Source: an uncultured Actinomycetota bacterium | GTDB lineage: Bacteria > Actinomycetota > Actinomycetes > JAHEKZ01 | Direction: 5' to 3' | Length of the DNA stretch: 64,000 bases | NCBI GenBank assembly: GCA_963829525.1 | Contig: CAWHIJ010000003.1 | Location: 2,400,001-2,464,000, forward strand | Part shown: positions 7,745 to 18,222 of the stretch, in pieces | How positions within the stretch are numbered: the first letter of the stretch is position 1 | Layout of the letters: each line of letters starts with the position of its first letter | Notes under the pieces: model-generated | What the model saw: the letters and a program-made list of their open reading frames with translations, nothing else | Databases searched by the model: none | What the model was told of the DNA's origin: nothing | Program-made: the position numbers and the translations under genes

Positions 7745-9300
7745 ATGTCGACCCCCGACAAGATCACCGAGATCGAAGAGCATGCGCACCGGCCCAAGAG
7801 CCTGGTACTCGCGCTCATCGTGATCTGTACCGCGCAACTGATGGTGGTGCTCGACGCCACGATCGTGAACATCGCACTCCCGAGCATCAAAGACGACCTC
7901 GGCTTCTCGCAGGCCAACCTCCAATGGGTGCTCACCGCCTACACGCTGGCCTTCGGCGGCTTCCTGCTGCTTGGCGGCCGCGCCGGTGACATCCTGGGTC
8001 GTCGCCGCGTCTTCATCTTCGGAATCCTGCTCTTCACTGTCGGCTCACTCGGCGGCGGCTTCGCGTGGAGCGAAGGGTCGCTGCTGGCGTTCCGCGCCAT
8101 CCAGGGACTCGGTGCCGCCATTGCCGCGCCCACCGCACTGTCGCTCATCGCCACCGAGTTCCCCGAGGGCAAAGAGCGCAACCGCGCAATGGGTGTCTAC
8201 GCGGCCATGTCTGGAGCCGGCGCCGCGGTCGGCCTGATCCTCGGTGGAATCCTCACCGAGATCGACTGGCGCTGGGTGATGTTCGTCAACGTCCCGATCG
8301 GGCATATTCATCGCACTCGTGGCGCCACGCGCGCTCACCGAAACCGAACGCCACACTGGCAAGTTCGACCTGCCGGGAGCAATCGCCGCCACCACGGGCC
8401 TGGCCATGCTGGTCTACGGCCTCACCCGCGTCGCCACGGACGTCGGCAAGAACGCCACCGCCGGGATCGCCGATCCAGCGCAGGAGGCTTGGACCAACAC
8501 CACGAACATCGCGATCATCGCCACCTCGGTCGTCATCCTCGCCGTCTTCATCGTCCTCGAGGCACGCAGCCGCCATGCGCTCATGCCGCTGCGAATCTTC
8601 GAGAACCGCAACCGTGCCGGTGCCTACGGCATCATGCTGATCATTGGTGCTGCCATGTTCGGGATGTTCTTCTACCTCACCCAGTTCGTGCAGGAGATTC
8701 TCGGGTACTCGCCGATCAAGGCCGGTTTCGCCTTCCTCCCCGTGAGCGTCTGCATCATCTTGTCCGCGGGTACCGCGTCACAGCTCATCACCCGATTTGG
8801 CGCCAAACCGTTCGCCTTGATCGGGTACTGCCATGACCGCGATCGGCATGATGTGGCTGGCGCAGATCCAGCCTGACTCCACCTACGTCGGAGGCCTGCT
8901 CGGCCCGATGATCGTGTTCGCGCTCGGTCTGGGCTTCACCTTCATGCCGCTGACCTTGGCGGCGGTTTCGCAGATCGACGAGAGTGACGCGGGAATTGCG
9001 TCAGGTGTCCTCAACACCACGCAACAGATCGGTGGATCGATTGGCCTCGCCGCTCTCACCACTGTTTCGGTGACCGTGTTTGCCACTCAGTTCGCCGACT
9101 TCATCAATGGCGGTGGGACGCCCCCGGCATCGGGAGCGCCACTCCCCGCTGAGCTGGTCACCGCTCAGGTCGACGGCTGGACGGCCGCGTTCCAGGTCTC
9201 CGCCTGGCTGGCGGTAGGTGCGTTTATCATCACCATCTTTGCCATCAAGGTGACGAAGGAAGAGGCCGCCCACGCCGGCCCCGTCGGCGGCGCTCACTAG
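7745..9300 (+). CDS. DHA2-family MFS efflux transporter, frameshifted near 8302 and 8831
   Basis: LDATIVNIALPSI, GGRAGDILGRRR, WRWVMFVNVPIG, ASGVLNTTQQIGGSIG in three consecutive frames. Confidence 0.88.
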
Positions 9301-9311
9301 TCGACAACCAG

Positions 9312-9357
9312 CAACGTGGTGGTGCGGTCGATCTAGCGGCCGCACCCCACCACGTTG
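9312..9357. terminator. Hairpin between convergent genes, probable bidirectional terminator
   Basis: CAACGTGGTGG-TGCGGTCG...CGGCCGCA-CC-CCACCACGTTG stem. Confidence 0.65.
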
Positions 9358-9362
9358 TTCGT

Positions 9363-10052
9363 TCAGCCGGGCGGCGGAGCGGTGCCACCGAGCCGCTGCG
9401 GTTGCCACCACTGTCCCGCACCGTCATCGGGGTACTCGTCTTGCGCACGTCGCACGAGTGCAATCACCTGTGATCGAAGTTCGGTGGCCGCCGCGTCACC
9501 GGTCAAGGTTGCTTCGATCGGTTCCCCGACGTAGACACTGACCGGTACGCCGCGCTGCTTGAGCGTGGAGTGCTCGTCGTAGGTCCAGAGCCGCTGGCTT
9601 CCCCAGACTGCCACCGGGATGAGCGGCGACTTGGTGGCTTTCGCCAGCCGTTCGGCCCCGGTCTTGAACTCCTTGGGCTCGAACGGCCGACTGATCGTTG
9701 CCTCCGGGAAGAGCCCGACCACCTCACCCGCCTTGAGCGCATCGAGCGCATCGCGAAAGCTCTGCATTCCCGCCTCACGGTCGACCGAGATATGGTGCAT
9801 GCCGCGCATCAAAGGCCCCGCCAACCAGTGAGCGAAGATCGGCTCCTTGGCCATGAACCGCACGTAGCGCCGCGACTGTCGAGCACCGAGGCCCACAAAT
9901 ATGAAGTCGAGGTGGCTGACGTGGTTCGACGCCATGACCGCAGATCCAAGGGCAGGAACGTGTTCGCCGCCCTCGACGCGAAGCTGTAGACCCAGAGCCT
10001 TAAAGGCGGTGAGGGTTGCAGCAATCACTGGTGGGTAGACAAGTTCAGACAC
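9363..10052 (-). CDS. 1-acyl-sn-glycerol-3-phosphate acyltransferase (PlsC family)
   Basis: NHVSHLD (HxxxxD), RFMAKE, LFPEAT; likely GTG start (VSELVYPPV). Confidence 0.9.
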   Translation of the reverse strand: MSELVYPPVIAATLTAFKALGLQLRVEGGEHVPALGSAVMASNHVSHLDFIFVGLGARQSRRYVRFMAKEPIFAHWLAGPLMRGMHHISVDREAGMQSFRDALDALKAGEVVGLFPEATISRPFEPKEFKTGAERLAKATKSPLIPVAVWGSQRLWTYDEHSTLKQRGVPVSVYVGEPIEATLTGDAAATELRSQVIALVRRAQDEYPDDGAGQWWQPQRLGGTAPPPG

Positions 10053-10083
10053 GGCAGTGAGCCTATCTGGGGACAATTCGGGT

Positions 10084-10896
10084 TTAGCGCGAGCGAACGG
10101 GAACGAAGCTCTGGGCAACGAGAAGAGCTGCATCGGCGCCTTCGGCGGCGAGAACGGCCGCCACGTGGTCCTCAACCGCTGACAACATCATTTCCGGGTC
10201 ACCCCGGTGCACCAGGCCACGCTTCTTTGCGATGACGGCAATCACCGTCGCGCGATGGATCGTCGCCCGGCGAGTTGACAGCTCACCCTCGTCAGCATCG
10301 GGGAACGCGTGCACAACCCCGTCACCGGCCGCGAGCTCGAGAAGTGCCGACCCAGCTCGGCGGCCGACTCGACCAGACTCAAGATGCCCAGACTCAAGAT
10401 GCCCAGACTCAAGGTGCCCAGCCGAAAGATGTGGGGCACCGAGGTTGAGCGCCCACACCGTCGCGTCCCCCACAGGGTGGACTACCTGAGAAGCGAACCG
10501 AGCGGCCTGCTCCCACCTGCCCGATTGCCAGCACGCCGCGACGCAGGTCTCGACCAGGTCGGCGATGCGTTCGTCAGATGCCCGCCACTCGAGCCATTCA
10601 CCGAGGCCGGCACGGCGAGCGGCCTCCGCCAGGTGCAGATCACTGGCCGCGGCCGTCGCCTCCCGGCTTACGCAGGCAGGGCATTGGGGCTCGGCCCACA
10701 CGTGGACCGCGAGGATGACGTCGAGCACCGAGTCGCCGAGGAACTCCATCCGCTGAAACTGCCGACCACGCCCGTCTCGCACGGCGTGCAGTGCCTCCTC
10801 ACTCGAAAGAGGCCCCAACACGGCTTCGATCTGGCCGCGTTCGGCGGCGGTCACCACGGCTCGAAGCCTCGGCGGCGGAGTATCCGGCAACGTCAC
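10084..10896 (-). CDS. RNase III-family protein with two tandem RNase III domains (second degenerate) and no dsRBD
   Basis: Domain 1: QRMEFLGDSVL..IADLVETCVAA. Domain 2: AGSALLEL..HAFPDADEGELSTRRA..AKKRGL..SAVEDHVAA. Confidence 0.78.
   Translation of the reverse strand: MTLPDTPPPRLRAVVTAAERGQIEAVLGPLSSEEALHAVRDGRGRQFQRMEFLGDSVLDVILAVHVWAEPQCPACVSREATAAASDLHLAEAARRAGLGEWLEWRASDERIADLVETCVAACWQSGRWEQAARFASQVVHPVGDATVWALNLGAPHLSAGHLESGHLESGHLESGRVGRRAGSALLELAAGDGVVHAFPDADEGELSTRRATIHRATVIAVIAKKRGLVHRGDPEMMLSAVEDHVAAVLAAEGADAALLVAQSFVPVRSR
10373..10417. repeat. 3 x 15-bp tandem repeat encoding (GHLES)3
   Basis: CCAGACTCAAGATGC twice, then CCAGACTCAAGGTGC. Confidence 0.95.
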
Positions 10897-13878
10897 GCAG
10901 AGACCACCAGCCGGCTGGAACCATCCCGGTTCGGCACCACAGTGATGCGCTCAGCAATACGCTCTTTGAGCTCAGGGACATGGCTGACGATGCCGACGAC
11001 GCGCCCACTGGTTCCAAGACCAGAAAGCACCGAAAGCACGTTGTCCAAGGTGTCCGGGTCCAGCGAACCGAAGCCCTCGTCGACGAACAGCGTCCCGAGG
11101 TCGACGCCACCAGCCTCCGCCGTCACGACGTCTGCCAGCCCGAGGGCCATCGCAAGTGAGCAGTAGAAGGTCTCGCCTCCCGAGAGCGTCCCCGGATCGC
11201 GTAGCTGGTCGGTGTGGGTGTCGCGCACGCGCAGCCCGAGACCGCTCCGCTTGTTGCCCTCACGGTCTTCGACGTGCTCAAGGGTGTAGCGACCATCACT
11301 CATGGTGGCAAGCCGATCGTTTGCCGACGCCACGACGTCGGCGAATCGTTCACGCAGCACGAATGTCGGCAGGCTCATCGACCGCACGTTGTCTGGCGGT
11401 AGACCCGCTCACCAGATCGGCCATTCGAATCACCGGCGCCGTCGATCGCTCAATCTCGGCGTGGGCGGTCAGCGCCGCATCGACCTCAGCGGCGCGCAGG
11501 ACGCTGTCATCAAGGCGCTGCCGAAGCTGGGCGAGCTGATCGTGCACGGCCTGTTGAGCAGCCTCGGAGTGAGCAACCACTGCGTCGGCAGCCCGCACGT
11601 CGATCACCTCATTGACGTCGACGTCGACAAGATCTGGGGCTGAAAGCTCGGCGCCAAGCTGAGCTCGTCGTCGGTCGGTCGCGTCGAGACTTTCGACAAG
11701 GGCAGACCTCTCACTCTCCTCAAGTCGAGCCGCTATCACCTCGTCGCGAGTGTCGAAGGGAGCGTCCGCCAGCTCAGTGGCCCACTCCGATGCCCGTATG
11801 TCGCAGTCGGCCTTCGCCGACTCTGCCGTCTGGGATGCCTCGGCCGCTGCGGCGAAGGAGTCGGCCTCCGCGTGGAGCGCCGCGATTCGCTCGGCAATAG
11901 ATCCGTGTCCCTCCAGTGCTGCAGCGACTCGCTGCTCGTCAGACTCCACCGCTTCCTTTGCAGCCTGAACCTCGGTCTGCAGCCGAGCTGACGCACCAGC
12001 AAGCTCAACACTGGCGGTGCGGTGCCGGGCGATGTCCTGCTCACGAGCGGCGATGTCAGCCTCGATCCGCTCGGCGTCCTGGGTGGCGATCTCCAGGTCA
12101 GCCACGGCAAGGTCGGCATTGACCAGCGCCAGCTGCGCCTCAGCAACTGAGACGCCATCAGCCCGGCCACGCAACTCTGCGAGCTCAGCTGCGACCTTGT
12201 TCGCCTCAGCCGAAGTCGCCTCGAGCGCGGCGGTCGCCTCGGCCAATCGCTCGGCGGCTGCGTCGACGTCCGACCGGGTCACATCGCCCGGCTTGCGCGC
12301 TGCTGGACGGGGGTGTTGGCGCGATCCACACACCGGACAAGGTTCGTCGGCGACCAGCCCAGATGCGATGTATCCCGCCATCCCGTCAAGGAAACGGCGA
12401 CGGATGTCGGTCTCTTCGGCCAGGCACTGCTGGGCAAGCTGGTGGGCTGCCTCTCGTGCTGCACCGGTCTCGGCTGCACGACCTTGCGAGGCGTCCAGCT
12501 CGGCGGTAGCCGCCAGCACCGCTGCCGCTGCCCGACGTGCGTCCGGCGCCCCAGTCCGCTCGCCACGTAGTGTCAACGCCGCCGCAAGTTGCTGCCGGAG
12601 GTCGGTGAGGACGGCGGGCGCCAGGACAAGTACCTCGTCGGCCTCCCTGCGCCGTCGCTCGACTTCGTCCTGCTCCGCTACCAGGACGGTCAGCCTCTGA
12701 ACACGCCCCGACAGCGTCAGCTCAAGCTCACGCAGCGCGGCAAGCTCGGCAGCGCGGTCCCGGAGGGAGCGTTCGCGTTGGTGCCATGTCTCTGCAGCCG
12801 ATTGCGGTTCAGCCAGGGCGGAGCGTCGTTCTGCCAGCACCGCAGCTGCTACATCGCGACGTTGCTCTGCCGCGGCTAATCCGTCGAGGAGTGGGACCAG
12901 CCGGGTCGCATCGTCAGCTCGAATCAGCCGAGCGCGGTCGGCGTCTCGCTGGTCAGCGAGGGAATCATGGGCGGCTAGTTCACCGCGCAGTGCAACCACA
13001 CGCCGTCGGGCTCGTTCGCGGGCCAGGCAGTCCGTCGCTCGCTTCCGTGCTTCCTCGACGATGCTCGTTGCCGAGGCGGCGGTAGCAGCAACTGTCTCAA
13101 CCTCGCGTCCCAGCTGATCAATCTGTTCGGCGGTTGCCCCGCCCAGCCCTCCTGCGGGCTTCTCGACAAGTGCAGCTTCGGCTTCCTCGTCGAGCCCGGC
13201 AGCTCCGCAGTAGGCACGAATGGCGCCAGCCACTGCAACGGCTGCGGCCACCTTGGACTGCCGCGCTGCCCTTCGTTGATCGACGAGCCGTTCAAGAACG
13301 GTGTCGTAGATCTCCGTTCCAAAGAGCCGCTGCAACAGCTCGCGCCGCACCTCAGGGGCTGACCGCAAGAACGTGGCGAACTCGCCTTGCGGGAGAACCA
13401 CGGTCTGGACGAACTGCTCCTGCGTCAGCCCCACGATCCTTGTCACCTCGCCGCCCACCTCGTCCAGCCTGGTGGATATGGGCTCACCGAGATCGGTGGA
13501 CGCGGCGCCCGGTGATGCGAGGAGCCAAAGCTTGGCCGACGCATTTTCTGTCGTCGTTCCGTCGCCGCGTCGTTTGGCGCGCTCGTGCTTAGGGGTGCGA
13601 CGGATGCGGTACATGCCATGGGCTGTGCTGAAGTCCAGCTCGACGAACGGCGTGACGTCTGGCCCTGCGACGTCGGAGTGCATGCGGTCAGCACTGGAGG
13701 TGCGCCCAGCCACGTCACCATAGAGCGCGAAGACGATTGCATCGATCAGCGTGGACTTACCGGCACCGGTCGGGCCTTCGAGCAGGAACAGACCCGAGGC
13801 GGCCAGCCGCTCGACGTCGACTTCGCAGGTCTGGGCGAACGGCCCGATCGCACAGAGGGTGAGGCGGTGCAGCTGCAT
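10893..13878 (-). CDS. sbcC: SbcC (Rad50-like SMC ATPase), frameshift near 11394
   Basis: Walker A GPTGAGKST, Q-loop VVLPQGEFA, zinc hook CPVCGS, signature LSGGETF, Walker B LFVDEGFGSLD, H-loop VSHV. Confidence 0.92.
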
Positions 13879-15071
13879 CAGGCGCTCCGGCCCTCGGCAA
13901 GTGCCCACTCATAGGCACTGGTGAACGTGACGAGCTCGGCCGATGAGATGTCACCACCGGTGACGTAGCGGACAAAGGCTTCGGCCACCTCCGCCGGCTG
14001 AGCCGGGACTTGTGACGATCGATCCTTCTGTTCGACAAGCGGACCGCACGCCGGAACGTGCCGGATCACCAGTGCCTCGGAGAACCTGTCTCGAACTTTG
14101 GCGACCATTTCAGATGGACGCGCCGCGTCAGTCACCGACACCTGCACCCAGGCGTGGGTGACGCTAATGAACTCATCCGAGGTGAGCAGCTCATCGAGAG
14201 TGCCGCCGATAGACGCCATATCTCGTGGTTGCTGCACAACCACCGACTCAGTGCCGCCAAAACCGTTGGGGCCTAGGTCGACCACCAGAAGCTGTTTTTG
14301 CTGGTTGACCTCGCTGAACGAGTAGCGCACCGGGGAGCCGGAGTACCGGACGTTCTCGCGTCCCACGCGCTGTGCCCCGTGCAAGTGTCCAAGTGCTACA
14401 TAGTCGAAGCCGCTGAAGACCTCACTAGGGACGCTGTCGACACCACCGACTCTGATGTCGCGCTCGCTGTCGCTGCGCTCGCTGTCGCCTTCGGTGCCCC
14501 GCACCTCTGCCGCCACGACGAACGCATGGGCCATGACCACCGCTCGCGACGCCGGCTCGGTAGCGCGACGAGCAGCGAGGTCGCCCCTGACTCGGTTCAT
14601 GGCCGCCGTCATGACGGCCTCGTGCGACCGCTCCAGCGGTTGGCCGCCATCGCTGAGCGCATGTCGAGCGACATCGGGGTCGAGAAAGGGAATCGGGTAG
14701 ACCAACACCGGACCAGCGGCATCGTGCAGCTGAATGGGAGTGCCAACAGCGCTCAACTCGGTGACGATATGGACGCCGTCGCGGAACAGGTCGGAGCCGA
14801 CACCCAAGCGCGTGGCTGAGTCATGGTTGCCAGGGATGACGATCACCGGAACGAGGGCGGAGAGCTCTTTGAGCGCATCCGACCAGAGGCGCACAGATCT
14901 CACGGGCGGCACCGCACGGTCATAGACGTCTCCAGCGATGAGCACCACATCCACCGAATAGCGCCTCACGCTGTCGACAACCTGATCGACTACGTGCTGC
15001 TGTGCCTCGTGCAGATCAACGCCGTGCAGTCCACGGCCCAGATGCCAGTCAGACGTGTGCAGCAGGCGCAT
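13878..15071 (-). CDS. sbcD: SbcD (Mre11-like nuclease)
   Basis: HTSDWHLG, AGDVYD, GNHDS, AHAF, LGHLH, YSGSP motifs. Confidence 0.95.
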   Translation of the reverse strand: MRLLHTSDWHLGRGLHGVDLHEAQQHVVDQVVDSVRRYSVDVVLIAGDVYDRAVPPVRSVRLWSDALKELSALVPVIVIPGNHDSATRLGVGSDLFRDGVHIVTELSAVGTPIQLHDAAGPVLVYPIPFLDPDVARHALSDGGQPLERSHEAVMTAAMNRVRGDLAARRATEPASRAVVMAHAFVVAAEVRGTEGDSERSDSERDIRVGGVDSVPSEVFSGFDYVALGHLHGAQRVGRENVRYSGSPVRYSFSEVNQQKQLLVVDLGPNGFGGTESVVVQQPRDMASIGGTLDELLTSDEFISVTHAWVQVSVTDAARPSEMVAKVRDRFSEALVIRHVPACGPLVEQKDRSSQVPAQPAEVAEAFVRYVTGGDISSAELVTFTSAYEWALAEGRSA

Positions 15072-15077
15072 GCGCTG

Positions 15078-15099
15078 ACGCTACCGACCGGCGCCGACA
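15078..15099 (-). promoter_or_regulatory. PafBC-type (RecA-NDp) DNA-damage promoter; leaderless sbcD transcript
   Basis: Minus strand reads TGTCGG-N10-TAGCGT-N6-ATG, matching TGTCGG-N10-TANNNT. Confidence 0.75.
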
Positions 15100-15144
15100 G
15101 AACGCGGGAGGCAGGCGTGGGATCTTTGGTGCGGAGCGGATCGA

Positions 15145-15750
15145 TCAGTAGATCTGTGAACCTGAACCCAAAGCAGCCGAGACGCCTGGTGCAGCATTCA
15201 GTGGGGCAGCGACGACAACGTTGCCGTGACGGACCCAACCGATCGCCGAGTTCGTCTGCGGGTCTTTGAGGAGTGCCGCGACCCACTTCTCAGCCTCGGC
15301 GGGCGACTCGAAGAGTCTGACCGCCATCGTGGCGTTGCAGGTGGCAACGTCCCCTGACACCGCCGCCCCGTTGCACACGATCCCGCCGTCCTCGAGGGCG
15401 GAAATCACCATTGTCGGATCGGACACGCTCGCCGGTAGGCCACTTTCACCGGATCCACTAAGTGCCCCAGCGGCCCATACCGCGCCGGCTGCAACTGCCA
15501 GTGCCAGGACCGCGCCGGTAACGATCTTGCCCTTGCCGCTTCCCCGGGGGGCTTCGGTGGTCTCCGCTTCCGCCGAGTCGTCGACGGGCTCCTGGGGAAC
15601 CTGGTCGAGCTCAGGATCGAGGACGGGCTCAACCACTCCGTCTGGGAGGACCGCGTCTTCGGCAGCCGAATCGGCGATCAGGGCGTCCTCAGCGAGCACT
15701 GTGCCCTCGGCCGCCTCGTCGACGGACTCGGACTTCTTGCGTGCGGACAC
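15145..15750 (-). CDS. Hypothetical membrane-anchored protein (acidic N-terminus, one TM helix, small C-terminal domain with 2 Cys)
   Basis: GGAGG RBS before GTG 15750; hydrophobic IVTGAVLALAVAAGAVWAAG. Confidence 0.7.
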   Translation of the reverse strand: MSARKKSESVDEAAEGTVLAEDALIADSAAEDAVLPDGVVEPVLDPELDQVPQEPVDDSAEAETTEAPRGSGKGKIVTGAVLALAVAAGAVWAAGALSGSGESGLPASVSDPTMVISALEDGGIVCNGAAVSGDVATCNATMAVRLFESPAEAEKWVAALLKDPQTNSAIGWVRHGNVVVAAPLNAAPGVSAALGSGSQIY

Positions 15751-15812
15751 GTAACCTCCCAGGTAGTCCCTGCGCTGGAATCGGCTCGCGGACGGTTGAG
15801 CCTTCGCCCTCG

Positions 15813-15828
15813 TCACCCGTTCGGCCCA
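15813..15828. promoter_or_regulatory. BldM-WhiI-like box TCACCCGTTCGGCCCA
   Basis: Matches TCACCCGnnCGGnnCA; near-copy at 19967-19982. Confidence 0.45.
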
Positions 15829-15875
15829 GTCCCAGAAGGGGACAGTTCAGTCACAGAGGTGGCCCACCTGGTCGG

Positions 15876-15903
15876 TCAACCTGCTGCCTCCAACAGCCGA
15901 AAC
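15876..15903 (+). promoter_or_regulatory. Sigma-28/WhiG/FliA-like promoter
   Basis: TCAA-N16-GCCGAAAC. Confidence 0.5.
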
Positions 15904-15947
15904 ACCAAGTGGGAAGCATGGGGATTCACGTGGGGAAGGGGCCGAGC

Positions 15948-16220
15948 ATGTCGGCAGCAGCAGACCGGATTGACATTTTGGACGAGGCAGGGCGATCGAT
16001 TGGCTGGGTCGACCCTCGCTCTGGCGCCCGCAACCTCAGCGACCCCGATCACGCCAAGGAGTTCGCCGAGATGGTCGACTTCTGGTTGACGACTGCTGGT
16101 GTCGACGGACCCGACGACGGCACCAGAGCGCCGACCGACCGATGGTCAGTCGCTGAGGTGCGTTTCCCCGACCCCCCAGTAATCCGGAGCCTGCTCATAC
16201 CGTTGCGCCCCCTCAGCTGA
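15948..16220 (+). CDS. Small hypothetical protein (~90 aa)
   Basis: ORF fills the gap before the ligase gene; purine-rich RBS; lies downstream of the sigma-28-like promoter. Confidence 0.5.
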   Translation: MSAAADRIDILDEAGRSIGWVDPRSGARNLSDPDHAKEFAEMVDFWLTTAGVDGPDDGTRAPTDRWSVAEVRFPDPPVIRSLLIPLRPLS

Positions 16221-16242
16221 CTCCTTTCGGCAAGATAGAGGC

Positions 16243-18222
16243 GTGACCGACACCCCTCTCTGGATTCCCACCCCGGATCAGACGCGACGCACGCAGGTCC
16301 ACGCTTTTCGCTGCGAGGTCGCAGACTCGTACGGAATCGACCTGCCAGACACCGCTGCCCTGCACTCCTGGTCGACCACGTCCGTCGGCGACTTCTGGGA
16401 CGCGGTCTTCAGCCGCTGGATCCTCGGTGACCGCGGCGCGGAACCAGCGCGAGTCGGCGACGACATGGAGGGAACCCACTTCTTCCCCGACGCGGCCGTC
16501 AGCTATGCAGAGAACCTGCTCGCAGGTGCCGACCGATCCGGGGCCGGCCCGGGTGCCACCGCCGTTACCTTCATTCGCGAGGACGACGTCCGCCGCACGC
16601 TCTCGTGGACCGAGCTCACCGACCACGCCTACGCCTTCGCCGCCTTCCTGCGGGCCAATGGCGTCGGCCCAGGTGACCGCGTCGCTGCATGGCTGCCAAA
16701 CACACCCGAGGTCCTCGTCGCCATGCTTGGCACGTCTCTTGTGGGTGGGGTGTTCACGTCGACATCCCCCGACTTTGGCGTTGCCGGAGTCCTCGATCGG
16801 TTCGGCCAAGTCGAACCCAAGGTGTTGGTCGGAACCGACGGCTACGTCTACGCGGGCAAGCACCAGCCGCGGCTCGAAAGACTGACCGACGTCGCCGCTG
16901 GTCTGCCCACCGTCGTGGTCACCGTCGTGGTCGGTGAGCTCGAGGCGAGCCCTGACTTGGCCACGCTGCCTTCTGCCGTGTTGTGGTCGGACGCGCTTAG
17001 CACCGGAAGAGAGCTCCCTCGGCCCGAACCGGTGCGGCTGCCGTTCTCTGCTCCCGGATTCATCCTCTACAGCTCGGGGACGACCGGAGCGCCCAAATGC
17101 ATAGTGCACAGCGGCGCTGGCCTCGCGCTCAAGCATGCAGTCGAACAACGCCTGCAGAGCGACATCGGATCAGGAGACGTGGTCTTCTACTTCACCACCT
17201 GCGGATGGATGATGTGGAACTGGCTCGTCTCTGCGCTTTCCTGCGGTGCGTCACTGGTGCTCTACGACGGCTCACCGTTCCACCCCGCCCCTGACCGGCT
17301 CTGGGACCTCGTCGACGAGTTTGGCATCACGTTTTTCGGTACCTCGGCCAAGTACATCGATGCCTCACGGAAGGCGGGAGTGACTCCGCGTGAGACGCAC
17401 GGCCTGGAGAGCATGCGGACCATCGCGTCCACCGGTTCTCCCTTGGTGGCCGAAGGCTTCGAGTACGTCTACAAGTCGATCAAGGCTGACGTGCACCTGG
17501 CGTCCATCTCGGGCGGCACAGACATCTGCGGCTGTTTTGTAGCGGGCGACCCCACCCTGCCGGTCTACCGTGGTGAGATCCAGGGGCCTGTGCTCGGTAT
17601 GGCAGTTGACGTCTTCGACGAGAACGGCGAGTCCCTCCGCGACTCTCCCGGATCTCACGGTGAGCTGGTTTGCACCCAGCCTTTCCCCTCGATGCCGGTC
17701 GGATTCTGGAACGACCCGGCCGGAGAGCGCTACCACAATGCCTACTTCAGCCGGTTTCCTGGGATCTGGGCGCACGGCGATTTCGCCTCTTGGACGTCAC
17801 ACGACGGACTGGTGATTCACGGCCGCTCAGATGCGACACTCAACGCCGGTGGCGTTCGCATCGGGACGGCCGAGATCTACCGACAGGTCGAGCGGCTCCC
17901 CGAGGTGCTGGAGGCATTGGCCGTTGGCCAGGAGTGGGATGACGACACGCGCATCGTGCTCTTCGTGCGGCTGGCCGATGGCGCGACGCTCGATGCCCAA
18001 CTGGTCGGGAACATCAAGCGGACCCTTCGGGAGAACTGCTCGCCGCGACACGTCCCGGCCAAGATCGTCGCCGTCCACGACCTCCCAAGGACGCGCAGCA
18101 ACAAGCTGGCTGAGCTGGCGGTCGCCGACGTAGTTCATGGTCGGGAAGTTCGCAACAAAGAAGCGCTGGCGAACCCAGAGTCGCTGGAATACTTCCGAGA
18201 CGTCCCCGACCTGGCCACCTGA
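16243..18222 (+). CDS. Acetoacetate-CoA ligase
   Basis: ILYSSGTTGAPKCIVH, FTTCGWMMWNW, SISGGTDI, GRSDATLN..GVRIGTAEIY, ALANPESL. Confidence 0.93.
   Translation: MTDTPLWIPTPDQTRRTQVHAFRCEVADSYGIDLPDTAALHSWSTTSVGDFWDAVFSRWILGDRGAEPARVGDDMEGTHFFPDAAVSYAENLLAGADRSGAGPGATAVTFIREDDVRRTLSWTELTDHAYAFAAFLRANGVGPGDRVAAWLPNTPEVLVAMLGTSLVGGVFTSTSPDFGVAGVLDRFGQVEPKVLVGTDGYVYAGKHQPRLERLTDVAAGLPTVVVTVVVGELEASPDLATLPSAVLWSDALSTGRELPRPEPVRLPFSAPGFILYSSGTTGAPKCIVHSGAGLALKHAVEQRLQSDIGSGDVVFYFTTCGWMMWNWLVSALSCGASLVLYDGSPFHPAPDRLWDLVDEFGITFFGTSAKYIDASRKAGVTPRETHGLESMRTIASTGSPLVAEGFEYVYKSIKADVHLASISGGTDICGCFVAGDPTLPVYRGEIQGPVLGMAVDVFDENGESLRDSPGSHGELVCTQPFPSMPVGFWNDPAGERYHNAYFSRFPGIWAHGDFASWTSHDGLVIHGRSDATLNAGGVRIGTAEIYRQVERLPEVLEALAVGQEWDDDTRIVLFVRLADGATLDAQLVGNIKRTLRENCSPRHVPAKIVAVHDLPRTRSNKLAELAVADVVHGREVRNKEALANPESLEYFRDVPDLAT

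Follow-up and report, generated by a model that had tools for sequence, protein, structure and literature searches.

The sbcD-sbcC-RNase operon and its promoter

The 64-kb stretch of DNA analysed here (the window) comes from an uncultured sediment actinobacterium and holds, on its minus strand like all operon features described below, three overlapping genes behind a candidate DNA-damage promoter. The first two are sbcD and sbcC; the third codes for a protein with two fused RNase III domains, called the RNase in the following. An earlier note on this DNA had called sbcD, sbcC and a tandem RNase III gene, and family models bear these calls out. The promoter motif and the TGATG and GTGA overlaps which it had reported were likewise all three found where it had placed them. 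The features of the operon are the following (aa, amino acids; the evidence is given in brackets):

15078..15099, minus strand: promoter-like motif TGTCGG-N10-TAGCGT of the RecA-NDp/PafBC type (sequence, shuffles, relatives, genome)
13878..15071, minus strand: sbcD, Mre11-type nuclease subunit, 397 aa (TIGR00619, motifs)
13876..13880, minus strand: TGATG, sbcD stop and sbcC start with one shared base (sequence, relatives)
10893..13878, minus strand: sbcC, Rad50-type ATPase, in two frames in this assembly (TIGR00618, motifs)
11394..11400, minus strand: single extra base breaking the sbcC frame, exact site ambiguous within 7 bases (alignment, run contigs)
10896..10893, minus strand: GTGA, overlap of the RNase GTG start with the sbcC stop (sequence, relatives)
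10084..10896, minus strand: RNase gene, 270 aa, two fused RNase III domains, no domain for the binding of double-stranded RNA (dsRBD) (Pfam, model, homologs)

SbcD scores 164.8 bits against TIGR00619 (cut-off 77.65), 52.3 against PF00149 (21.5) and 25.4 against PF12320 (24.4), and the phosphoesterase motifs DWHLG, GDVYD, GNHD and GHLH were found and are invariant in 11 sequences. The N- and C-terminal parts of SbcC match positions 1–194 and 899–1040 of TIGR00618; Walker A (GPTGAGKS, 13776..13753) and the zinc hook (CPVCG, 12339..12325) were located, as were the signature LSGGE, the Walker B/D-loop LFVDEGFG and the H-loop IVSHV of the C-terminal lobe. This sbcDC pair is the sole copy in the genome. 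It is like the SbcCD of E. coli and other bacteria in the overlapping order of sbcD and then sbcC, the phosphoesterase, Walker A/B, the signature and the CxxC hook, but differs from them by a coupled third cistron and by the frameshift of sbcC in this assembly.

Between the end of the promoter motif (15099..15078) and the sbcD ATG at 15071 there are 6 nucleotides (nt); the intergenic region upstream of sbcD measures 73 nt in all (15144..15072). The motif is matched a single time in the window, where 0.02 matches would be expected (100 shuffles). When the upstream regions of 12 relatives were aligned, a -10-like hexamer of the type TAnnnT appeared 6–7 nt upstream of the sbcD ATG in all 12, a position which implies a leaderless mRNA. 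The upstream element is retained as TGTCGG or TGTCAG in nine of the 12 (the exact TGTCGG-N10-TAGCGT in six, TGTCAG-N10-TACCGT in three); one relative has CGTCGG-N10-TACGGT and two have the -10-like part alone. Genome-wide, six of the 17 matches to the relaxed form TGTCRG-N10-TANNNT are located at most 62 nt upstream of repair genes, namely recA, uvrA, uvrB, radA, a gene for a DEDD exonuclease/UvrC-like protein, and sbcD. The NCBIfam scores of the motif-led genes are all above cut-off (recA 574, uvrB 1057, uvrA 1567, radA 496 and the DEDD exonuclease/UvrC-like protein 873 bits), and uvrB, the DEDD exonuclease gene and sbcD have the exact 6-nt spacing from motif to start in common. A candidate for the activator exists as well: two WYL-domain genes with a 4-base overlap are found at C3:1772923-1775093, with Pup-ligase-family genes 2.7 and 6 kb beyond them on the same strand. 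No NCBIfam model matched this tandem pair; its position near the Pup-ligase genes is an arrangement which we take to be that of pafA-pafB-pafC.

PafBC has been reported to activate its targets via the non-palindromic RecA-NDp motif (PMC6789036), which reaches other Actinobacteria and has recA and uvrA under its control (PMC8223512). In a dnaQ mutant of Mycolicibacterium smegmatis, sbcD is given among the raised genes of the PafBC regulon (PMC11348249). The locus resembles the mycobacterial PafBC/RecA-NDp regulon in the non-palindromic upstream element with a TAnnnT-type -10, in the kinds of genes downstream, and in the pafBC-like WYL pair beside pup-ligase genes. It differs in its host, an uncultured sediment actinobacterium, and in the third gene, of which the available parts of these reports make no mention for mycobacteria. 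With the motif also in front of recA, uvrA, uvrB, radA and the DEDD exonuclease gene and a WYL pair in the genome, the PafBC-type promoter proposed in the earlier note holds up. Judged from the DNA, control of sbcDC by a damage promoter of the PafBC/RecA-NDp type is well supported, and as such it is already known biology.

A sigma-70 and terminator scan of positions 9000-16300, which does not cover actinobacterial promoters, gave 0 promoter-like sites and no minus-strand terminator, and no Rfam family was matched within 9000-16500. As a separate observation, two damage-promoter motifs stand back to back about 300 nt apart at C3:1512887 (minus strand) and C3:1513200 (plus strand). The DEDD exonuclease/UvrC-like gene follows one of them at the 6-nt distance of a leaderless mRNA, and a 107-aa open reading frame (ORF) without family match follows the other.

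Both gene junctions are conserved. The 1-base overlap of the sbcD stop with the ATG of sbcC was found in 11 of 11 relatives read (10 TGATG, 1 TAATG), and the 4-base overlap of sbcC with the RNase gene in 11 of 12 (9 GTGA, 2 ATGA), the only one without overlap being L018. The turnover from GTG to ATG at the latter junction preserves a start codon, and the overlap persists across genera whose RNase proteins share only 44–58% identity. The couplings which the earlier note had read at the two junctions thus have counterparts in nearly all relatives, and translation of sbcC and the RNase gene is likely to be coupled.

What the earlier note had missed is that 13878..10893 amounts to 2986 nt, no multiple of three. 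In the window sbcC is an 842-codon frame and an overlapping 164-codon frame, whereas it reads as one uninterrupted frame in relatives and in a contig of the public run X2. The extra base is missing from all eight aligned relatives (8/8). Contigs of four public runs (X1, X2, X5 and X7) were compared with the locus. The X2 contig has one letter fewer at 11400 and 0 other differences over 463 nt, and strain-level contigs of X5 and X7 have one letter fewer at 11398. In X1, the run which covers the locus best, the contigs end and restart at the site of the extra base, and this run is not decisive. According to their coordinates, L013 and L158, the latter a 94%-identical metagenome locus, have an intact sbcC frame of 994 codons. 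At the protein level the 164-codon part shares 96–98% identity with close relatives, and its ATPase motifs are all whole. Because relatives and the X2 contig are without the extra base and the 164-codon part is conserved, the frameshift probably stems from an error of assembly or from a minor strain variant and not from decay. That sbcC is a true pseudogene in this strain, in an operon which is decaying, seems very doubtful to us. The frameshift is present in the assembly, and the break of the X1 contigs exactly at the extra base could mean a mixed population, but the identity and whole ATPase motifs of the 164-codon part, the otherwise identical short-read contig of X2 and the 994-codon frame of L158 all speak against a pseudogene.

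The two-domain RNase III protein

The product of the third gene consists of two RNase III domains and a linker with a short repeat:

10471..10773, minus strand: RNase III domain a, about residues 42-142 (Pfam stretch 48-125, invariant columns)
10373..10421, minus strand: tandem repeat with a 15-nt unit in 3.3 copies, translated as (HLESG)3 within the linker between the domains (Tandem Repeats Finder)
10111..10371, minus strand: degenerate RNase III domain b, residues 176-262 or thereabouts (profile against Drosha, alignments)

PF00636 (Ribonuclease_3) matches the protein in two stretches with 48.9 bits (cut-off 27). Domain a carries the signature EFLGD (10746..10732) and the stretch ADLVE (10563..10549), and its residues E51, G54, D55, D113 and E116 are invariant in 24 close homologs as well as in 41 homologs which reach down to 18% identity. 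The combination of PF00636 with the four catalytic acids was found for domain a only. In domain b the catalytic positions, as mapped from alignments, read R179, S183, D243 and A246; with three of the four acids missing, the protein is not expected to have two catalytically competent domains. The two halves gave no alignment with each other in BLASTP. Nevertheless the family profile is collinear with Drosha RIIIDa plus RIIIDb (E 4.6e-30), and in this alignment of hidden Markov models the family stretch LGA.VLE falls on EFLGDSIMQ of Drosha and the stretch D..Q/A on D..E.

The AlphaFold2 model of the RNase has a pLDDT of 91.9 and a pTM of 0.91, the linker residues 161-170 having a pLDDT of 52. 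Its best 19 Foldseek matches are chains of Drosha, Dicer and plant Dicer-like (DCL) enzymes. Structural alignment with Drosha (5b16) gave Z 18.9 and a root mean square deviation of 4.1 Å over 252 residues, and other two-domain enzymes, including DCL3 and Dicer, gave Z 14–18 over 239–258 of the 270 residues. Single-domain bacterial RNase III enzymes, on the other hand, aligned over only 118–127 residues (Z 12–13.6). Two RNase III domains forming an intramolecular dimer within one chain were thus found, on the predicted model.

The RNase is not a canonical Rnc: against the Rnc equivalog TIGR02191 it scores 48.2 bits, far under the cut-off of 166.25. No dsrm, PAZ, helicase or platform module was found in it, Pfam returning RNase III families alone, while the canonical rnc locus of another genome (L142) showed dsrm in the same scan. 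A separate canonical RNase III match exists in the genome at C3:2267470-2267913. A protein atlas search with the RNase gave only generic RNase III clusters, all with scores <0.9.

By its residues and predicted structure, the RNase is a fused asymmetric RNase III pair, an intramolecular dimer of the Drosha/Dicer kind. It would have one catalytic centre, because the set of four metal-binding acids is complete in domain a alone. With the Drosha/Dicer core it has in common two RNase III domains per chain and a 270-aa model which superposes as a whole (Z 15–19, about 250 residues). Unlike that core, it is bacterial, shares 14–18% identity with it, shows no accessory module and has the catalytic set in domain a only. 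Bacterial Rnc and Mini-III share with it the signature and acids of domain a, and like Mini-III it is without a dsRBD. These enzymes have one domain per chain and form symmetric homodimers with two active sites (PMC8708148, in the part available), in contrast to the fused asymmetric pair with one site predicted here.

Each RNase III domain cuts one strand, and RNase III heterodimers with one dead subunit nick. Taking the single intact site together with one strand per domain, we infer that the RNase would cut one strand of a duplex.

An alternative is that the RNase is no nuclease at all but an RNA-binding or scaffold protein. Maize chloroplast RNC1, which has two RNase III domains both reported to be inactive, provides a precedent (PMC8708148, same part). 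The RNase is like RNC1, which was compared by description only, in its two domains and in the loss of catalytic residues, here in domain b, and unlike it in its conserved domain a. E51, D55, D113 and E116 are invariant in 41 of 41 homologs despite identities of 18%, which is the pattern of a working site, and we give the scaffold role little credence.

Two further features of the protein were observed. The HLESG repeat varies in copy number and stays in frame: the strain contigs of X5 and X7 are shorter by 15 and 30 nt, the number of copies is higher in a close homolog (P0006), and it is one in the majority of homologs. H65, C72, C75 and H140 (10672-10704 and 10477-10479), that is, two histidines and a CPxC, are invariant in 24 close homologs but not across the wider family. 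Together they may bind a metal, such as zinc, in a structural role within domain a.

Distribution and genomic linkage

A search of 5.8 billion proteins returned 95 relatives of the RNase (E up to 0.001), most of them 255 aa long, and all named ones belong to uncultured Actinomycetes/Actinomycetia. A profile search of 1.84 billion representative proteins gave 24 clusters at E <1e-30 and 69 at E <1e-10, weaker matches extending into proteins of eukaryote length. Within the family of the window's organism, 17 of the 19 other genomes have a homolog. No two-domain RNase was found in 21 genomes taken from 21 other families of the class, four of which gave weak partial matches (E at least 5e-6); in 14 of these same 21 families sbcD was present, a count which includes genome G025 and becomes 13 of 20 without it. 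A profile scan of 401 genomes of the phylum at E 1e-14 yielded 242 genomes with a match, mostly to canonical rnc and then through domain a alone. Of the 150 matches listed, beyond which there are 95 more, two-domain members turned out to be only G363 and G251, of one genus. One further candidate, G407, was rejected, since its gene codes for a canonical Rnc including the dsRBD and stands ahead of fpg, smc and ftsY. Unpublished genomes are included in the scan of the phylum (G187, G382, G375, G265, G213, G121, G307, G278, G041, G127 and G057), as they are, with G025, in the sbcD count; none of the loci described here stems from them, L126 and L135, which derive from two of these genomes, having been left aside.

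One locus was read from each of 14 related genomes, and 12 of the 14 show the order sbcD-sbcC-RNase (genera g1, g3 and g4). Since most of the 12 share flanking genes, they represent one inherited arrangement and not twelve. The other two loci, both of genus g2, have the RNase gene without sbcDC, and a search for sbcD in both genomes of this genus, which are 88% and 90% complete, found none. Over 20 genomes of the family, 15 have both genes, three the RNase only (the two of g2 and one fragmented g1 genome), one sbcD only, at a contig end, and one neither; the latter, G017, is 96% complete. As a side observation, G005 (contigs C3 and C15; 69% complete) has three sbcD and two RNase matches with 63–67% identity to the window, probably redundant strain contigs in the bin.

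Conserved chromosomal surroundings also bear on the suggestion of the earlier note that the operon might be a defence module made of a sensor of the structural maintenance of chromosomes (SMC) type and a nuclease effector. As an anti-phage module it would have SbcC as the sensor and SbcD and the RNase as effectors. A gene for an ATPase of SMC/Rad50 fold beside nuclease genes is indeed a likeness to Lamassu and other SMC-like defence systems, and the fold of SbcC is similar to that of LmuB and other such ATPases (PADLOC LmuB, E 1.4e-18). But the RNase has 0 PADLOC matches and SbcD a marginal one (E 0.005), both parts of SbcC are better matched by sbcC models, this is the only sbcCD in the genome, the promoter is common to recA, uvrA and uvrB, and the whole region is syntenic in relatives and no variable island. 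The suggestion therefore finds no backing and we regard it as extremely improbable, although the lack of a PADLOC model may leave room for an undescribed defence system.

Outside the family the linkage ends. In a collection of species representatives, 12 loci with family members were found; seven repeat the sbcDC arrangement, several of these being genomes already counted, and five have no sbcCD within 7 kb. The latter are four uncultured Actinomycetes and Geodermatophilus pulveris DSM 46839. The four uncultured ones share the order MaoC-like gene, RNase, gene of the single-stranded DNA-binding protein (SSB) family, EttA. Two more genomes, of one genus in another class, have the RNase and no sbcCD match on the 6.7–13.6 kb fetched (L141, L143); in L141 the genes next to it code for an acyl-CoA synthetase, a DnaJ-PASTA protein and a rhodanese. 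Of 12 metagenome loci at the level of the family, five have sbcC directly upstream of the RNase, three have 288–713 nt upstream and no sbcC, one is too short, and three are of the MaoC/SSB/EttA type. The relaxed promoter motif was found in none of seven scanned loci without sbcDC. Linkage to sbcCD across genera, a check which the earlier note had proposed, is kept within the one family, but not in g2 or in the homologs outside; the situation which the note had named as speaking against its idea, homologs in unrelated contexts, is encountered in part.

Some details of this second actinobacterial lineage may be added. At L038-L041 and L166-L168 the RNase gene lies between a MaoC-like dehydratase and the SSB-family gene, then EttA follows, and at L038 there are 20 nt from the end of the RNase gene to the SSB-like ORF. 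The window's own genome has the SSB-like/EttA pair at another site, without an RNase gene. A gene for an AMP-binding enzyme near the RNase in several distant loci was rejected as a link, its copies sharing only 21–28% identity; paralogs of this enzyme are numerous in actinobacteria.

Around the operon of the window, two further genes deserve mention:

9363..10052, minus strand: PlsC-type acyltransferase gene, 31 nt downstream of the RNase gene (PF01553, 97.9 bits)
15145-15816, minus strand: 223-aa ORF without Pfam or PADLOC match, upstream of sbcD in most relatives

The acyltransferase gene is the most constant neighbour of the RNase within the family and may be a fourth cistron of the operon. 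A homolog of the 223-aa ORF directly precedes the RNase gene in L020, a g2 locus without sbcDC. Further on, a gene of the major facilitator superfamily (MFS) at 7745-9300 on the plus strand is split into two ORFs, 363 and 155 aa long, which overlap by ATGA at 8833-8836. The match to Pfam MFS_1 is limited to residues 28-186 in the first ORF and to the beginning of the second, and the middle part matches six related loci out of frame and two collinearly. This split may reflect further assembly indels or a real difference.

Possible roles of the RNase in the damage operon

Taken together, the locus would be a single chromosomal operon of the Mre11/Rad50 type, sbcD-sbcC, transcribed as a leaderless mRNA from a DNA-damage promoter of the PafBC/RecA-NDp type, to which a third cistron has, in this actinobacterial family, been joined by the 4-base overlap of its start with the sbcC stop. 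Upon DNA damage the RNase would then be made together with SbcCD. The co-induction proposed in the earlier note is what promoter and overlapping operon anatomy lead one to expect, and to that extent it stands as a prediction from the DNA. The RNase would most likely cut one strand of an A-form duplex, either double-stranded RNA (dsRNA) or perhaps an RNA:DNA hybrid, in which case it would cut the RNA strand; this substrate, and any role at DNA lesions, we infer. A shared role of the RNase and SbcCD in repair is possible.

The explanation which we favour, with moderate confidence, is that the RNase is an autonomous enzyme which was recruited into the damage operon in this lineage and is not an obligatory subunit of SbcCD. 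It would be autonomous because it is kept in genus g2, where no sbcDC was detected, and has other neighbourhoods elsewhere.

Several points weigh against this explanation. The three-gene order is known from the genomes of a single family, whose synteny is conserved all around the operon, so the 12 loci are not independent. If the frameshift were real, this strain would make no intact SbcC. The 17 genome-wide motif matches compare with 16.3 expected from base composition, and the argument for the promoter therefore depends on which genes are downstream of the motif and not on the number of matches. The consensus letters of RecA-NDp behind the assignment are presumed ones. Among the 20 public runs listed for the locus, none that contains it is on record as RNA, and on sequence alone the RNase gene may have an internal promoter. 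Finally, activity of domain a, a dead domain b and single-strand cutting are deduced from residues and a predicted model.

A closer tie is conceivable as well. The RNase could be a dedicated accessory of SbcCD, which attaches to the complex or works on lesions shared with it and clears RNA there, be it R-loops, hybrids, nascent transcripts or dsRNA derived from breaks, and so lets SbcCD process hairpins and ends. The 4-base overlap in 11 of 12 relatives, including the change from GTG to ATG, fits such a function, as do the lack of intergenic space for a separate RNase promoter and the damage promoter at the head of the operon. An RNase III with one site would suit a substrate with a single RNA strand, and in another lineage a homolog stands directly before an SSB-family gene. 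There is also a eukaryotic parallel in the MRN-DROSHA/DICER connection (PMC8015226, PMC12374970, as far as the available parts of these reports go). Against an accessory stand the two g2 genomes which keep the RNase with no sbcD found, the three metagenome loci with 288–713 nt but no sbcC upstream of it, and the absence of sbcCD near the RNase outside the family in all five genome loci (0/5) and the two further ones (0/2; L141, L143). Moreover, of the 21 other families of the class, 14 have sbcD, and no two-domain RNase was found in them. RNase III enzymes are not known to cleave RNA:DNA hybrids, which we also count against it. A structure prediction for a complex of SbcD 1-340, the N and C lobes of SbcC and the RNase (score 0.00, mark 0.32) gives no evidence either way. 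On balance we hold a dedicated accessory to be unlikely.

Conversely, the adjacency could be an accident of this lineage and the RNase a housekeeping enzyme of RNA maturation or decay, a fused paralog similar to Mini-III and without dsRBD. It persists without sbcDC and in unrelated contexts elsewhere, the seven loci without sbcDC have no damage-promoter motif, the most constant neighbour within the family is the acyltransferase gene, and the genome has an additional canonical RNase III match. Yet an exact 4-base overlap with turnover of the start codon, across genera with 44–58% identity, would not be expected from mere accident, and a promoter activated mainly by damage would serve a housekeeping enzyme ill. 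We consider this possibility a minor one, though it deserves to be kept in mind.

Recruitment of an autonomous RNase, as favoured above, is to be distinguished from a bolder variant, a module of Mre11/Rad50 plus a Drosha-like enzyme. Here PafBC would induce SbcCD together with a minimal one-site RNase which cuts, at lesions processed by SbcCD, either the RNA strand in R-loops or hybrids or duplex RNA arising from breaks. The adjacency to an SSB paralog in the second lineage is an independent second contact with DNA metabolism and keeps this variant alive, but we think it quite improbable. For eukaryotes, recruitment of DROSHA by MRN and cleavage of R-loops associated with damage by DICER have been reported (PMC8015226, PMC12374970, available parts).

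Part of what is found here is already known, namely the promoter with sbcDC. The RNase itself belongs to an enzyme family already known, in which its architecture is a new variant. According to the part available of a 2021 review, bacterial RNase III enzymes have a single catalytic domain per chain and only Drosha and Dicer have two (PMC8708148); a bacterial RNase family with two domains falls outside this scheme. No described bacterial tandem RNase III and no sbcCD-RNase III operon was found in the literature covered, which took in few subscription journals and no supplements. Being small and compact, with a model of high confidence, the RNase could be used to study the asymmetric RIIIDa/RIIIDb core in a minimal form. 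With one site, if that reading is right, it would nick duplex RNA in a strand-specific manner, as a natural enzyme of this kind. Should its link to sbcDC be incidental, the locus is an ordinary sbcDC operon of the PafBC type with an unusual passenger gene. Should the module exist, it would be a prokaryotic counterpart of MRN-DROSHA recruitment and of R-loop cleavage by DICER, and it would show that eukaryotes are not alone in having fused two-domain RNase III enzymes. The coupling of the RNase gene into an operon under a damage promoter raises a question which can be tested: does an RNase III act at DNA lesions in bacteria, as in eukaryotes?

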